Origin: Escherichia coli
GTDB taxonomy: Bacteria; Pseudomonadota; Gammaproteobacteria; Enterobacterales; Enterobacteriaceae
Reading direction: 5' to 3' (one strand)
Length of the DNA: 33,649 nt
Assembly (NCBI RefSeq): GCF_003334255.1
Contig: NZ_QOWU01000057.1
Part shown: one piece after another, positions 3,197 through 33,577 of the stretch
How positions within the stretch are numbered: position 1 is the stretch's first letter
Layout of the letters: each line of letters begins with the position of its first letter
The notes under the pieces: generated by a model
The model's database searches: none
Seen by the model: the letters and a program-made list of their open reading frames with translations, nothing else
What the model was told of the DNA's origin: nothing
Position numbers and translations under genes: made by a program

Positions 3197-3262
3197 ATCA
3201 AACACCCTTAACTTACCTTTGAGCGCCAATTTAAGCGGGGTAAGTGAAGGGAGTGTGAAGAA

Positions 3263-3928
3263 CTATGCCGTAATATCCCAACCACGCGCTTTCCACAGTT
3301 CCGGTAACTGCGAAAGATGGGTAAAGGTGGTGACTTTCGGGTGAACGATCGGCTTATTGTGCGGGTCGGCGCAGAAGTAGAACACTTCCATACCTGCGTC
3401 GATACCAGATTGCGCACCGGCAACTGAGTCATCAACCAGAATGCAGTTTTCTACATTTACATTCATCGCTTTTGCCGCATGGAACATTAACGCCGGGTCT
3501 GGCTTCCAGCGCTGAATATCGTAGCCGCTGAACAGTTTATCCGGGAAGTAGTGCAACATATTCAGCTTGCCCATAGAATGCTGCATTTTGTTATTTGGGC
3601 CGTTAGATACCACACACATTGGCGCAGTGATCGCTGACAGGAGCGCTCCAGCCCCTTCGATGGCTTCCAGTTCTGAATCGAACAGCCGAGCGACTTCTGC
3701 ACGGTAAACGTGTTCAGCTTCTGTTTTCGCTAACGTAACACCATGTTCAAGGGAAACAATATCGATAATTTCGTACAGTTTTACACCTTTGAAACGTTTG
3801 AATACCTCTTCAGGATCGAGCGTAATACCAAATTCCTGAAACATCGTTACATATGCGCGGGAGCAAATGACTTCACTGTCGACCAGCGTACCGTCGCAGT
3901 CGAAAAATACCGCTTCTATCTGGGACAT
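3263..3928 (-). CDS. yieH: YieH, HAD-superfamily phosphatase (6-phosphogluconate phosphatase) (221 aa)
   Basis: N-terminal HAD motif VFFDCDGTLVDS; 221 aa; K-12 synteny. Confidence 0.9.
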   Translation of the reverse strand: MSQIEAVFFDCDGTLVDSEVICSRAYVTMFQEFGITLDPEEVFKRFKGVKLYEIIDIVSLEHGVTLAKTEAEHVYRAEVARLFDSELEAIEGAGALLSAITAPMCVVSNGPNNKMQHSMGKLNMLHYFPDKLFSGYDIQRWKPDPALMFHAAKAMNVNVENCILVDDSVAGAQSGIDAGMEVFYFCADPHNKPIVHPKVTTFTHLSQLPELWKARGWDITA

Positions 3929-4094
3929 GTCTTTCCTTTATCGTTAGTTTAACGTTTTCGTCATGCCAATTCGCATGACGCAATCGTTGCCGTATAAGCA
4001 AATACAATGAAAAAAAGTTATCTTCAGCCGTCCATATTGTCTCATTTTGGTATACGATAGCGACGGATTTTCCCTCCTTGTTCGGAAATAGATA

Positions 4095-5432
4095 ATGAGT
4101 CAACAACACACAACCCAGGCTTCTGGCCAGGGGATGCTGGAACGCGTGTTTAAACTGCGCGAACATGGCACGACGGCACGGACCGAAGTGATCGCCGGTT
4201 TTACCACCTTCCTGACGATGGTTTACATCGTTTTTGTTAACCCGCAAATTCTTGGCGTTGCTGGCATGGATACCAGCGCCGTCTTCGTTACTACCTGTCT
4301 GATTGCTGCATTCGGCAGTATTATGATGGGACTGTTTGCTAACCTGCCAGTTGCACTGGCACCCGCTATGGGCCTGAATGCGTTCTTCGCTTTTGTGGTT
4401 GTGCAGGCGATGGGCTTGCCGTGGCAAGTCGGGATGGGCGCAATCTTCTGGGGTGCGATTGGTCTGCTGTTACTGACGATTTTCCGCGTTCGCTACTGGA
4501 TGATTGCCAACATTCCGGTAAGTCTGCGTGTGGGCATCACCAGCGGTATCGGTCTGTTCATTGGTATGATGGGACTGAAGAATGCAGGTGTGATTGTCGC
4601 TAACCCGGAAACGCTGGTCAGCATCGGTAACCTGACTTCTCACAGCGTGCTGCTGGGGATCCTCGGCTTCTTCATCATCGCTATTCTGGCCTCGCGCAAC
4701 ATTCACGCGGCGGTGCTGGTTTCCATCGTGGTGACAACGCTGCTGGGCTGGATGCTGGGTGATGTCCACTACAATGGCATCGTTTCTGCGCCGCCGAGCG
4801 TAATGACTGTCGTGGGCCATGTAGATTTAGCCGGGTCGTTTAACCTCGGGCTGGCAGGGGTGATTTTCTCTTTCATGCTGGTCAACCTGTTTGACTCCTC
4901 CGGTACGCTGATTGGCGTGACCGATAAAGCAGGCCTGGCGGATGAGAAGGGTAAATTCCCGCGCATGAAGCAGGCGCTGTATGTCGACAGTATCTCTTCC
5001 GTGACCGGTTCGTTTATCGGTACTTCTTCCGTTACGGCTTATATTGAGTCCTCTTCCGGCGTATCGGTTGGCGGTCGTACCGGTCTGACGGCAGTGGTTG
5101 TTGGTCTGCTGTTCCTGCTGGTTATCTTTCTGTCGCCGCTGGCGGGAATGGTGCCAGGCTACGCTGCAGCTGGCGCGTTGATCTACGTTGGCGTGTTGAT
5201 GACCTCAAGTCTTGCTCGCGTGAACTGGCAGGATCTTACTGAATCTGTTCCGGCGTTTATTACCGCCGTGATGATGCCGTTCAGCTTTTCGATTACCGAA
5301 GGTATTGCGCTGGGCTTTATCTCCTACTGCGTGATGAAGATTGGTACCGGGCGTCTGCGTGACCTTAGCCCGTGCGTAATCATCGTTGCGCTGATGTTTA
5401 TCCTGAAGATTGTATTTATCGACGCTCATTAA
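4095..5432 (+). CDS. adeP: AdeP (YieG/PurP), adenine permease, NCS2 family (445 aa)
   Basis: 445-aa polytopic membrane ORF; divergent from yieH as in K-12. Confidence 0.9.
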   Translation: MSQQHTTQASGQGMLERVFKLREHGTTARTEVIAGFTTFLTMVYIVFVNPQILGVAGMDTSAVFVTTCLIAAFGSIMMGLFANLPVALAPAMGLNAFFAFVVVQAMGLPWQVGMGAIFWGAIGLLLLTIFRVRYWMIANIPVSLRVGITSGIGLFIGMMGLKNAGVIVANPETLVSIGNLTSHSVLLGILGFFIIAILASRNIHAAVLVSIVVTTLLGWMLGDVHYNGIVSAPPSVMTVVGHVDLAGSFNLGLAGVIFSFMLVNLFDSSGTLIGVTDKAGLADEKGKFPRMKQALYVDSISSVTGSFIGTSSVTAYIESSSGVSVGGRTGLTAVVVGLLFLLVIFLSPLAGMVPGYAAAGALIYVGVLMTSSLARVNWQDLTESVPAFITAVMMPFSFSITEGIALGFISYCVMKIGTGRLRDLSPCVIIVALMFILKIVFIDAH

Positions 5433-5452
5433 AATCGATAGCGCATTAAAAA

Positions 5453-5489
5453 CCTGCCATGCATGATTACTGGCGGGTTTTTTATTTAG
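5453..5489. terminator. Candidate bidirectional intrinsic terminator between convergent adeP and chrR
   Basis: Hairpin CCTGCCA…TGGCGGG (7 bp, one G-U pair) followed by TTTTTTATTT on + strand and preceded by an A-run (serves the - strand). Confidence 0.5.
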
Positions 5490-6052
5490 ATCTTAACTCG
5501 CTGAATAAACTCACCAAATGCGGTCAATTGCCCGGTCAGGTGGTCCAGCGTACCCTGATCAATCACTTCTCCGGTTTGCGGATCAACTTTGTTCTGAATC
5601 ACGCCGCCCATAAATTCCGGCTTGTTCATCACCATTGCATCGAGGAAAACCAGAATCTGGCGCAGGTGATACTGACAGCGCGCGCCGCCAATCACGCCCA
5701 TTGAGCTGGTCTGAATCAACACCGGTTTACCTGCCAGCGGTTGATCCGGCAGGCGGGAAAGCCAGTCGATGGCATTTTTCAGCCCACCCGGTACCGAGTA
5801 GTTATATTCCGGCGTGACGATCACCACACCGTCAGCCTGACGGATCTGTTCCGCCAGAGCTTCAACCGTTGCTGGAAAACCGTCTTCCTGCTGTACGTCA
5901 GCGTCATACAGAGGAATGTCGGCAATGGAAGGTAACGCATTGACTTCCATGCTTGCCGGAGCAATTTTCGGCAGGGTACGTGCAACCATGCCATTAAATG
6001 AGCCTTTGCGCAGGCTCCCCAGTAACGTAACCACCTGCAATTTTTCAGACAT
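5486..6052 (-). CDS. chrR: ChrR (YieF), NAD(P)H-dependent FMN reductase / chromate-quinone reductase (188 aa)
   Basis: 188-aa ORF, ATG at 6052; flavodoxin-like NADPH-dependent FMN reductase sequence (MSEKLQVVTLLGSLRKGSFN…). Confidence 0.9.
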   Translation of the reverse strand: MSEKLQVVTLLGSLRKGSFNGMVARTLPKIAPASMEVNALPSIADIPLYDADVQQEDGFPATVEALAEQIRQADGVVIVTPEYNYSVPGGLKNAIDWLSRLPDQPLAGKPVLIQTSSMGVIGGARCQYHLRQILVFLDAMVMNKPEFMGGVIQNKVDPQTGEVIDQGTLDHLTGQLTAFGEFIQRVKI

Positions 6053-13876: not shown

Positions 13877-13930
13877 GATGTTCCTGTTGCTTTGTGTGGC
13901 GGATGCGCGGTGCTTATCCGCCCTACGAAA

Positions 13931-16974: not shown

Positions 16975-18378
16975 GTGTCACTTTCGCTTTGGCAGCAGTG
17001 TCTTGCCCGATTGCAGGATGAGTTACCAGCCACAGAATTCAGTATGTGGATACGCCCATTGCAGGCGGAACTGAGCGATAACACGCTGGCCCTGTACGCG
17101 CCAAACCGTTTTGTCCTCGATTGGGTACGGGACAAGTACCTTAATAATATCAATGGACTGCTAACCAGTTTCTGCGGAGCGGATGCCCCACAGCTGCGTT
17201 TTGAAGTCGGCACCAAACCGGTGACGCAAACGCCACAAGCGGCAGTGACGAGCAACGTCGCGGCCCCTGCACAGGTGGCGCAAACGCAGCCGCAACGTGC
17301 TGCGCCTTCTACGCGCTCAGGTTGGGATAACGTCCCGGCCCCGGCAGAACCGACCTATCGTTCTAACGTAAACGTCAAACACACGTTTGATAACTTCGTT
17401 GAAGGTAAATCTAACCAACTGGCGCGCGCGGCGGCTCGCCAGGTGGCGGATAACCCTGGCGGTGCCTATAACCCGTTGTTCCTTTATGGCGGCACGGGTC
17501 TGGGTAAAACTCACCTGCTGCATGCGGTGGGTAACGGCATTATGGCGCGCAAGCCGAATGCCAAAGTGGTTTATATGCACTCCGAGCGCTTTGTTCAGGA
17601 CATGGTTAAAGCCCTGCAAAACAACGCGATCGAAGAGTTTAAACGCTACTACCGTTCCGTAGATGCACTGCTGATCGACGATATTCAGTTTTTTGCTAAT
17701 AAAGAACGATCTCAGGAAGAGTTTTTCCACACCTTCAACGCCCTGCTGGAAGGTAATCAACAGATCATTCTCACCTCGGATCGCTATCCGAAAGAGATCA
17801 ACGGCGTTGAGGATCGTTTGAAATCCCGCTTCGGTTGGGGACTGACTGTGGCGATCGAACCGCCAGAGCTGGAAACCCGTGTGGCGATCCTGATGAAAAA
17901 GGCCGACGAAAACGACATTCGTTTGCCGGGCGAAGTGGCGTTCTTTATCGCCAAGCGTCTACGATCTAACGTACGTGAGCTGGAAGGGGCGCTGAACCGC
18001 GTCATTGCCAATGCCAACTTTACCGGACGGGCGATCACCATCGACTTCGTGCGTGAGGCGCTGCGCGACTTGCTGGCATTGCAGGAAAAACTGGTCACCA
18101 TCGACAATATTCAGAAGACGGTGGCGGAGTACTACAAGATCAAAGTCGCGGATCTCCTTTCCAAGCGTCGATCCCGCTCGGTGGCGCGTCCGCGCCAGAT
18201 GGCGATGGCGCTGGCGAAAGAGCTGACTAACCACAGTCTGCCGGAGATTGGCGATGCGTTTGGTGGCCGTGACCACACGACGGTGCTTCATGCCTGCCGT
18301 AAGATCGAGCAGTTGCGTGAAGAGAGCCACGATATCAAAGAAGATTTTTCAAATTTAATCAGAACATTGTCATCGTAA
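16975..18378 (+). CDS. dnaA: DnaA, chromosomal replication initiator protein (467 aa)
   Basis: ORF 16963..18378 trimmed to the GTG at 16975 ([17 protein letters not shown]…); Walker [12 protein letters not shown]; C-terminal DnaA-box-binding domain. Confidence 0.97.
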
Positions 18379-19483: not shown

Positions 19484-22999
<3,516 letters not shown>

Positions 23000-23020
23000 T
23001 GGCGCTAACCATGCGAGCGT

Positions 23021-23049
23021 GCCTGATGCGCTACGCTTATCAGGCCTAC
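23021..23049. repeat. REP (repetitive extragenic palindromic) element, first of a BIME-like pair downstream of gyrB
   Basis: GCCTGATGCGCTACGCTTATCAGGCCTAC is an imperfect palindrome matching the E. coli REP family consensus as I recall it. Confidence 0.65.
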
Positions 23050-23084
23050 GAAAATCTTGCAATGTATTGAATTTTCATGATTTT

Positions 23085-23118
23085 GTAGGCCGGATAAGGC
23101 GTTCACGCCGCATCCGGC
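23085..23118. repeat. REP element, second of the pair, opposite orientation
   Basis: GTAGGCCGGATAAGGCGTTCACGCCGCATCCGGC is the reverse complement of the canonical REP GCCGGATGCGGCGTGAACGCCTTATCCGGCCTAC. Confidence 0.7.
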
Positions 23119-23134
23119 AAGAAGCTATAAGAAA

Positions 23135-23166
23135 AGGGCGGAGATCATCTCCGCCCTTTTTATTTC
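23135..23166 (+). terminator. Rho-independent terminator downstream of gyrB
   Basis: Hairpin AGGGCGGAG-atcat-CTCCGCCCT followed by TTTTTATTT; an upstream A-run makes it potentially bidirectional. Confidence 0.65.
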
Positions 23167-23238
23167 TGCAATCCGCAATTATCATCCCGCAAATCTATAC
23201 TTTTTGGGTCAACACGTAACGCTTTACAGGTGATTATC

Positions 23239-23637
23239 ATGGGGCTTTTTGATGAAGTTGTCGGTGCCTTTCTGAAAGGCGATGCGGGGAAATATCAGGC
23301 TATTTTAAGTTGGGTTGAGGAGCAGGGCGGCATTCAGGTGCTGCTGGAAAAACTGCAAAGTGGCGGCTTAGGGGCCATTCTCTCAACCTGGCTGAGTAAT
23401 CAACAGGGCAATCAATCGGTTAGTGGCGAGCAACTGGAATCGGCGCTCGGCACAAATGCGGTGTCCGATCTCGGGCAAAAACTTGGCGTGGATACCAGTA
23501 CAGCTTCCAGTTTACTGGCAGAACAATTGCCGAAGATTATTGATGCGCTCTCACCGCAAGGTGAAGTGTCACCACAAGCCAATAACGATCTGCTTTCCGC
23601 AGGCATGGAACTGCTGAAAGGGAAACTCTTCCGCTAA
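23239..23637 (+). CDS. yidB: YidB, DUF937-family protein of unknown function (132 aa)
   Basis: ORF 23230..23637 trimmed to ATG at 23239 (MGLFDEVVGAFLKGD…); Gly/Ser/Gln-rich low-complexity protein; K-12 synteny. Confidence 0.8.
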   Translation: MGLFDEVVGAFLKGDAGKYQAILSWVEEQGGIQVLLEKLQSGGLGAILSTWLSNQQGNQSVSGEQLESALGTNAVSDLGQKLGVDTSTASSLLAEQLPKIIDALSPQGEVSPQANNDLLSAGMELLKGKLFR

Positions 23638-30266: not shown

Positions 30267-31327
30267 TCCTTCAACTGTGGAATATGTGCCACACCACTGC
30301 GCATAATCCACTTTCTTAAAGCCGGTGCGGTCAGGCATCGGCTTTTTACTATCTTGCCGAAGAGTTTTAAACGCAGTTTGCGGGTGGCGCGCCAGTAAGC
30401 GGTATTGAGCTTCTCTGGCTGCTTCAGTAACACCGAACGCAGAATGTCTGTGCTATCCAGCGCATAGCTAATCCCCTCCAGCGAGCTGGCGCTGATAAAT
30501 CCCGCCGCTTCACCAATCAGAAAGGCGTTGTCCTTACCGCAGACAAAATCCTGCCAGCGCGAGGGAAACAGCACCGTGCATTTTTCGCTTTTCACCGTCT
30601 TACCAAACTGGAACTGAAAGGCGCTCATTTTCTCTTTCAGCGTCGTGAAACGCGTCTGACCGTCTTTCATTGGATAGGCACCGCCAAAGATAAAATAACC
30701 GTCTTTGCTGATACTCCATGAATAACAGTTAGTTATCGAATTATCAAAGATGCAGGAGTAGAACGGCACCGGATGTTTCTCCGCGAACCACTGCTGGATA
30801 GCGACATATTTACGGATTTGATGATCCGGGTAGAGATGTCGCCGCACCATCGAGTTTGCGCCATCGGCACCGACCAGATAGCGGGCGGTAATATGTTGCT
30901 CCCAGCCGTCTGCACGAAAAATGACATGCCATTTATCATCCTCACGCCAGATTTTTCGGCACAGGCTGTCGTGATAAACCTCAACGCTGGCGGGGATCAG
31001 CGATTTCATCCACAAGTCGAAAGCATGGCGATTAATATTGATATAGCTTCGCTGGTAGTTACGCGTGAGCGATGCGGCGACGTCGACGGTTTTGACGCTG
31101 AAAATCTGCGGATTAGCGATCACATCGACAGGAAGCGTCAGCCCATCGCGAATAAAAGATCGCTGCGCGTCCGGTGCCAGCAGACCGCCGCAGGGTTTGC
31201 TGAAACCTTCAGTACCACACTGGTGCTTTTTATCCAGCGCGATCACCTGCATTTTGCCTGCTAACTTTCGTGCCAACGCCGATCCTGCCGGGCCGAGGCC
31301 AATAATCGCCACGTCGAAATGTTCCAT
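30263..31327 (-). CDS. cbrA: CbrA (YidS), FAD-dependent oxidoreductase, geranylgeranyl-reductase-like (354 aa)
   Basis: ORF trimmed to ATG at 31327 ([22 protein letters not shown]… = Rossmann GxGxxG FAD-binding motif); stop codon overlaps the dgoT stop. Confidence 0.85.
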
Positions 31328-33178: not shown

Positions 33179-33280
33179 TACATCGTAGCCGATGAGGACG
33201 CGCCTGATGGGTGTTCTGGCTACCTGACCTGTCCATTGTGGAAGGTCTTACATTCTCGCTGATTTCAGGAGCTATTGATT

Positions 33281-33577
33281 ATGCGTAACTTTGATTTATC
33301 CCCGCTTTACCGTTCTGCTATTGGATTTGACCGTTTGTTTAACCACTTAGAAAACAACCAGAGCCAGAGTAATGGCGGCTACCCTCCGTATAACGTTGAA
33401 CTGGTAGACGAAAACCATTACCGCATTGCTATCGCTGTGGCTGGTTTTGCTGAGAGCGAACTGGAAATTACCGCCCAGGATAATCTGCTGGTGGTGAAAG
33501 GTGCTCACGCCGACGAACAAAAAGAGCGCACCTATCTGTACCAGGGCATCGCTGAACGCAACTTTGAACGCAGGTAA
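33281..33577 (+). pseudogene. ibpA: ibpA (small heat-shock protein IbpA) truncated after codon 97 of 137 by IS1; fused reading frame adds Arg and stops at TAA 33575..33577 inside the IS1 end
   Basis: N-terminus [68 protein letters not shown]… matches IbpA up to …GIAERNFER, then the sequence switches to the IS1 terminus GGTAATGACTCC at 33573. Confidence 0.85.

Follow-up and report, generated by a model that had tools for sequence, protein, structure and literature searches.

In the 33.6-kb window, by which the whole stretch of DNA analysed is meant, gyrB is followed on the same strand by yidB, with an intergenic region of 239 nt between the gyrB stop codon and the yidB ATG at 23239. The region is equal in length in E. 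coli K-12 MG1655 and base-for-base identical to it, while the whole window aligns to the same genome with 99.4% identity over 33.5 kb; its source is by this comparison a close K-12 relative and not MG1655 itself. Between the two genes are located a pair of REPs, which together form a BIME, and directly downstream an intrinsic terminator. The K-12 RefSeq annotation holds only CDS features in the gyrB-yidB region, and the missing REP feature is thus uninformative. The 3' UTR of gyrB is strongly structured, with a z-score of -5.55 for folding against shuffles. The features of the region, with the evidence for each in brackets, are as follows.

22997..22999 (+): gyrB stop codon TAA (ORF 20582-22999 aligned to the K-12 gyrB 3' end)
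23000..23020 (+): spacer of 21 nt from the stop codon to the first REP
23021..23118 (+): single-copy BIME-1 (RIP/RIB-type) of 98 bp (consensus match to 12 other copies; row of the published BIME-1 list)
23021..23049 (+): REP 1, short z type (z1 by the BIME-1 definition), 29 nt, GCCTGATGCGCTACGCTTATCAGGCCTAC, with the CTAC end at 23046-23049 (REP pattern)
23050..23084 (no strand assigned): L linker of 35 nt (conserved core and Rfam ES036)
23060..23072 (-): IHF-type core ATTCAATACATTG (one mismatch to WATCAANNNNTTR)
23085..23118 (+): REP 2, y type, 34 nt, GTAGGCCGGATAAGGCGTTCACGCCGCATCCGGC, with the GTAG start at 23085-23088 (REP pattern on the - strand; inverted repeat I3)
23119..23135 (+): spacer of 17 nt, whose last four nucleotides, the A-tract AAAA (23132-23135), give the terminator its symmetry
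23136..23165 (+): intrinsic terminator of gyrB, stem GGGCGGAGA/TCTCCGCCC with loop TCA, then TTTTTATTT (folding, scan, conservation)
23196-23201 (+): TATACT, probable -10 element of a yidB promoter (conserved motif)
23239..23637 (+): yidB coding sequence, the downstream neighbour (translation and K-12 annotation)

A BIME-1 and an intrinsic terminator behind gyrB

The REP pattern used, GATGCG-N3-25-CTTATCMGGCCTAC, has two exact matches in the 33.6-kb window, at 23025-23049 (+) and 23085-23114 (-), compared with 0.00 expected from 100 dinucleotide shuffles, and the two opposed REPs that the original prediction had placed at 23021..23049 and 23085..23118 are thereby established. Both REPs fold as imperfect palindromes into stem-loops with internal mismatches in the stems, the RNA hairpin of REP 1 reaching -15.0 kcal/mol and that of REP 2, which is 86% complementary as inverted repeat I3, -20.9 kcal/mol. 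Both carry the REP foot, CTAC in the first and GTAG in the second, and both are extragenic and belong to a highly repeated sequence: a 551-nt query finds a median of at least 40 places per E. coli genome. Elsewhere in the window, at 13913-13926 (+), the REP-tail-like sequence CTTATCCGCCCTAC differs by one mismatch from CTTATCMGGCCTAC and is either a degenerate REP remnant or a chance match.

BIMEs are divided into BIME-1, composed of a z1 and a y REP with a long conserved L linker that often contains an IHF site and present as a single copy, and BIME-2, composed of z2 and y REPs with short linkers in tandem arrays (PMC3333891). At gyrB, a z1 and a y REP, inverted relative to each other, flank a linker of 35 nt, with no other REP in the whole window. 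Compared with the consensus of 12 other BIME-1 copies of K-12 W3110 (coordinates from the supplementary table of Sutormin et al.), the z REP is identical in 29/29 and the y REP in 34/34 positions, so that the match to a REP consensus on which the prediction depended is complete, and the L linker is identical in 28/35 positions with its core TGCAAT.TATTGAATTT kept. By its sequence, the REP pair after gyrB represents a canonical BIME-1 (synonyms RIP and RIB) in a single copy; BIME-1 is the class associated with IHF.

The IHF consensus of the long conserved linker of about 35 nt is represented by ATTCAATACATTG, which is the linker core read on the opposite strand. The motif alone occurs near chance in the window (36 found versus 26.7 expected), and it gains weight from its constant position within the conserved L linker and from the frequency with which L carries an IHF site (PMC3333891). 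By analogy with the class, IHF probably binds at the linker of the gyrB copy; the text of Prieto et al. (2012) on IHF does not mention REPs.

The terminator following the BIME is built on a perfect 14-nt inverted repeat (23132-23145 / 23147-23160), of which the G+C core hairpin (23136-23156) has a free energy of -16.7 kcal/mol that falls to -23.3 kcal/mol with the A:U extension, and the T-tract TTTTTATTT stands directly after it at 23157-23165, 73 nt ahead of the yidB ATG. A G+C-rich hairpin is thus located immediately before a U-tract 3' of the stop codon, as had been predicted from the first reading of the DNA, and it is conserved at the same place in relatives. A strict terminator scan (hairpin of -14 kcal/mol or below, T4 directly after it and at least 6 T in 9) gives only three matches on both strands of the whole window, versus 0.15 in 60 dinucleotide shuffles. 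The gyrB terminator hairpin accounts for two of them, one per strand. The third, a second strong terminator with GCCGGTGCGGTCAGGCATCGGC then TTTTTACTA at 30321-30351 (+), is located about 55 nt past the dgoT stop codon, which argues that the scan is specific for gene ends. The gyrB hairpin is not listed on either strand by the built-in consensus promoter and terminator scan, a limit of that scan which possibly stems from the 1-nt centre of the perfect palindrome and no evidence against the hairpin.

The end of the gyrB transcript is predicted at the U-tract, at about 23161-23166. Among published RNA 3' ends, the supplements of Adams et al. hold no gyrB, yidB or coordinate match and the TERMITe supplements no match. 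On the - strand, the hairpin precedes TTTTCTTAT, and with AAAA before and TTTT after it the structure could also stop a weak antisense transcript.

Downstream of the terminator, TATACT (23196-23201) is embedded in CTATACTT about 38 nt 5' of the yidB ATG, a motif common to Escherichia, Kluyvera, Cedecea and Pseudocitrobacter. It is not called by the consensus promoter scan. Its conservation suggests that it is probably the -10 element of yidB, which would then possess its own promoter. In E. coli DS26-1, an insertion of ISEc47, a member of the IS66 family, separates the gyrB terminator from the promoter region of yidB (L004, ~3250-5860, corresponding to window position ~23185), and in NZ_CP082327 yidB is interrupted by IS1. 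A mechanical open reading frame of 66 codons (23019-23219, +) spans BIME and terminator; a few strains have a 'hypothetical protein' annotated beneath 23019-23219 (matches H17 and H43), possibly this frame, in which case the call is probably spurious.

Alleles and relatives of the gyrB 3' region

Of 5,426 complete E. coli genomes, 4,625 show the BIME-containing form of the region, while about 780-800 (~15%), an O25:H4 strain for example, possess a short BIME-less allele in which 36 unrelated nucleotides stand in place of 132 nt, namely the BIME with two 17-nt flanks (window 23004-23135). In the short allele, no change affects the stop codon, the terminator stem or the sequence downstream of it. 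The 36-nt segment, TTTTTGTTGCTGATAAAATGACTTAGTCGTCAGTCC (L001 454-489, E. coli O25:H4 18044), is single-copy, and its source was not found by exact search or short-word BLAST in the 134 fetched loci. A BIME-1 occupies the equivalent position in E. albertii and in E69, a divergent strain with the label E. coli, where it has acquired a small insertion or several substitutions that disable it, and its occurrence there indicates that the BIME at gyrB is old. The short allele is most simply read as a later replacement of the BIME, which, as far as natural alleles tell, is dispensable in nature.

Most variation within E. coli falls into the linker and the 5' flank. The terminator hairpin is identical or nearly so in all examined E. 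coli alleles, with BIME and without, in E. albertii and in E69. In Kluyvera, Pluralibacter, Cedecea, Mixta and Franconibacter, a non-homologous hairpin with a T-run occupies the same place. In a sample of 120 Enterobacterales gyrB 3' ends, yidB directly follows gyrB in 18 loci, 13 of which display an intergenic hairpin and T-run with unrelated stem sequences. Across genera, a hairpin with a T-run is found within 300 nt of the gyrB stop codon in 71 of 113 loci, at a median of 46 nt; the T-run of K-12-type E. coli starts 157 nt past the stop codon because the BIME is wedged in between. Cedecea davisae and Enterobacter sp. Ag1 (L083 and L012), with a gyrB-yidB intergenic region of 264 nt, have an insertion of about 160 nt between two copies of the terminator hairpin (GCCGCGCTTTTAGCGCGGC), an arrangement suggestive of a small mobile element that inserted into the terminator or duplicated it.

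REPs of the E. coli type also follow gyrB in nine loci of other genera (Salmonella, Citrobacter, Pluralibacter, Superficieibacter and Pseudocitrobacter). In Salmonella L121 and Citrobacter L029, L062 and L075, gyrB is followed by a y REP, a short linker, a z REP, a terminator and yidA, with yidB absent, while Pseudocitrobacter has a partial REP and a y REP ahead of a Kluyvera-type terminator. The first ~130 nt past the gyrB stop codon carry REPs in Salmonella arizonae, Citrobacter, Pluralibacter and Superficieibacter (L121, L029, L062, L075, L040 and L065) in the order y, short linker, z where both REPs are detected, opposite to E. coli, again with terminator and yidA following and yidB absent; the terminator behind the REPs of Salmonella and Citrobacter reads AAAAGGGGAATC..GATTCCCCTTTTTAT. 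Neither REPs nor the native 3' region of gyrB are treated in a paper on a Salmonella gyrBA operon. As the arrangements differ between Escherichia (z-L-y), Salmonella, Citrobacter, Pluralibacter and Superficieibacter (y-short-z) and Pseudocitrobacter, separate insertions of REPs after gyrB are indicated. Since REPs are common in 3' UTRs, this recurrence across genera is suggestive at most, and that selection rather than chance keeps REPs in the gyrB 3' UTR seems highly improbable. Were it true that the REPs tune the fate of gyrB mRNA or local DNA structure in a supercoiling-dependent way, the ~15% of E. coli without the BIME would be expected to differ systematically in gyrase homeostasis.

A probable passenger upstream of an old terminator

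With respect to function, the best overall explanation, which we hold to be very probable, is that an old, strong terminator ends the gyrB transcript and that the BIME-1 is an unrelated passenger with a small effect on gyrB and no gyrase cleavage site. A BIME-1, a non-autonomous member of the REP family, would have inserted between stop codon and terminator before the lineages of E. coli and E. albertii separated. RNA polymerase engaged on gyrB would transcribe through the BIME and terminate at the U-tract at about 23161-23166, and the terminator would most likely shield the weakly expressed yidB from read-through. As the BIME is located upstream of the terminator, it is expected to be transcribed as part of the gyrB mRNA, where the REP hairpins, or a long z:y duplex, would probably be a further obstacle to 3'-to-5' exonucleases that have passed the terminator hairpin, in line with the established action of REPs against 3' exonucleases (PMC3333891). 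On the DNA, IHF would probably bind the linker, as described for other BIME-1 copies, and bend it. Since natural strains can do without it, the BIME probably affects gyrB only slightly.

REPs are described as mRNA stabilisers, terminators and protein-binding sites (PMC3333891), and tandem gene pairs containing REPs show upstream-biased expression, with higher upstream/downstream ratios. In a genome-wide analysis, half-lives of mRNAs with terminal REPs were not longer, and the effect of REPs is context-dependent. By analogy, mRNA stabilisation by the REPs at gyrB is plausible, and any protection they give may be negligible, given the lack of a genome-wide gain in half-life and a terminator hairpin that already caps the transcript. 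An effect of the REPs on translation termination of gyrB was considered and rejected: the first REP starts 21 nt past the stop codon, and according to the summary of Liang et al. (2015) in PMC7967276 such effects reach no farther than 15 nt.

A more active role, in which the BIME partly attenuates transcription in a Rho-dependent manner before the intrinsic terminator is reached and is also what chiefly stabilises gyrB mRNA, as described for REP325 in yjdMN, is in line with the stability of the REP hairpins (-15.0 and -20.9 kcal/mol), with REP325 being terminator and stabiliser at once and with the expression bias of REP-containing tandem pairs, and BIMEs can attenuate transcription (Espeli et al., 2001, as referred to in PMC3333891). 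However, only 17 nt separate the BIME from a strong terminator that is conserved irrespective of the BIME, and many strains naturally lack the element; we regard such a role as unlikely at gyrB.

The linker also matches an RNA family. Rfam ES036 (RF02751) is found at 23042-23084 (-) over model positions 1-43 of 43 with 44.8 bits, above its gathering score of 37.6, while the BIME-2-like naRNA4 (RF02564), with 47.1 bits, remains under its gathering score of 59.5; both results back the BIME-1 assignment independently of the alignment. CssrF, which is part of the ES036 family name, is an RNA detected at dacB/yhbZ in Shigella. The 43 nt matched by the model consist of the repeated BIME-1 linker and a REP foot, and as they recur in other BIME-1 copies, the match represents a copy of the repeat and not an orthologous RNA gene. 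An sRNA gene called from the ES036 match was rejected on these grounds. That the region nevertheless encodes an sRNA, either ES036/CssrF-like on the - strand or as an antisense transcript starting in the 5' region of yidB, could draw, besides the score above threshold, on a reported antisense start of transcription in the yidB-gyrB interval, directed towards the REPs (PMC7967276), and on the symmetric terminator hairpin, which could stop such a transcript. Yet CssrF is defined at another locus, the ES036 match reflects membership in a repeat, the reported antisense expression is weak and condition-specific (PMC7967276), and the consensus scan finds no promoter-like site on the - strand next to the element, which leaves an sRNA at this place with a very low probability. 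ES036 matches of this kind should be read as copies of the BIME-1 linker and not as sRNA genes. Elsewhere in the window, Rfam AsdA (antisense RNA of dnaA mRNA) matches in full length at 17485-17565 (-) with 101.9 bits and the RNA thermometer ROSE_2 at 33215-33287 (+), in the ibpA leader, with 100.4 bits.

The expression of gyrB responds to supercoiling, and a REP pair next to gyrB invites the reading, raised as a notable juxtaposition by the original prediction, of a gyrase-binding site. Gyrase cleavage mapped at single-nucleotide resolution is enriched in tandem BIME-2 elements, while the BIME-1 class is depleted, with 3 cleavage sites in ciprofloxacin versus 9.0 expected (P = 0.02; PMC6379681, table DS3). 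The coordinates of table DS3 equal those of W3110 plus a constant of 1121, an offset checked at the sucB-sucC BIME-2, and its BIMEs1 row 3763853-3763950 consequently corresponds to W3110 3762732-3762829 and exactly to window 23021-23118. This row lists 0/0/0/0 sites in ciprofloxacin, rifampicin plus ciprofloxacin, microcin B17 and oxolinic acid (PMC6379681), so that no gyrase cleavage is detected at the gyrB BIME-1 in published Topo-seq data, for which repeats can be hard to map with short reads. Neither the in vivo cleavage nor the structure of a BIME-2 is thus found here: the linker is a 35-nt L linker and not a short S linker, the z REP is short and not z2, and the unit is single and not in tandem. 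With no cleavage site at the element in four conditions, the idea of a gyrase site next to gyrB lacks functional support.

A gyrase-binding site placed purposely by gyrB, through which gyrase occupancy or supercoiling would feed back locally on gyrB expression, is a reading to which we assign next to no chance. It can point to the reported binding of gyrase to REPs in vitro (Yang and Ames, 1988, as cited in PMC6379681) and to E. coli-type REPs after gyrB in 11 of 116 Enterobacterales loci, including other genera and varied arrangements, but is already largely refuted by the Topo-seq zeros and further opposed by the depletion of cleavage in the BIME-1 class to which the element belongs, as distinct from the gyrase-cleaved BIME-2 type, by the ~15% of E. 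coli genomes without the BIME, by the decay of the BIME copies of E. albertii and E69, and by the presence of REPs in many 3' UTRs, which makes recurrence after one gene weak evidence.

Of the original interpretation, the REP pair or BIME and the intrinsic terminator were thus right, while its functional gloss mixes properties of different BIME classes. That the arrangement is known in K-12 was likewise correct: the locus is identical there, has its row in the published BIME-1 list and has served as a figure example of a REP intergenic region (PMC7967276). Beyond correct annotation, the locus is of little importance. The idea of a gyrase repeat by a gyrase gene can be set aside at gyrB on published cleavage data, and the BIME-1 and BIME-less alleles, which share the same terminator, provide a clean natural contrast for the effect of a BIME-1 on an essential, supercoiling-regulated gene.

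Comparison with known REP and terminator systems

The preferred reading, a passenger BIME-1 ahead of an old terminator, can be set against several known systems. In the cases in which REPs affect translation, the repeats lie within 15 nt of the stop codon, a range outside of which the gyrB REPs, at 21 nt, are located. With Rfam ES036/CssrF (RF02751), the gyrB linker has the full-length match above threshold in common, while the RNA of the family name was detected at dacB/yhbZ in Shigella and the gyrB match, which lies antisense to gyrB, represents a paralogous copy of the repeat.

The hairpin behind the BIME resembles canonical symmetric or bidirectional intrinsic terminators in its 9-bp G+C stem extended to 13-14 bp by A:U pairs, its 3-nt loop, its U-rich tail and its position between two genes. 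It differs from them in that the upstream A-tract at gyrB belongs to the flank of the BIME allele and is absent from the BIME-less allele. As in the REP stabilisers, such as the 3'-end protection at malE-malF and REP325, terminator and stabiliser at yjdM-yjdN, REP hairpins would be transcribed at the 3' end of the upstream gene of a tandem pair; in contrast to these, the gyrB REPs precede a strong intrinsic terminator that would already give a protected 3' end.

With BIME-2 elements, for example those at sucB-sucC and eco-mqo, the gyrB element shares the y REP and the general REP palindrome, but it is distinguished by its long L linker, short z REP and single unit, by the absence of detected gyrase cleavage and by a naRNA4 score under threshold. 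With BIME-1 (RIP/RIB), on the other hand, it agrees in the z-L-y architecture, in REP orientation, linker core and single copy, and in its location at the 3' end of a transcription unit. Its length of 98 bp compares with mostly 96-98 bp for the published BIME-1 copies, and there is no structural difference, the linker of the gyrB copy deviating from the consensus at 7/35 positions and thereby staying inside the spread of the family.
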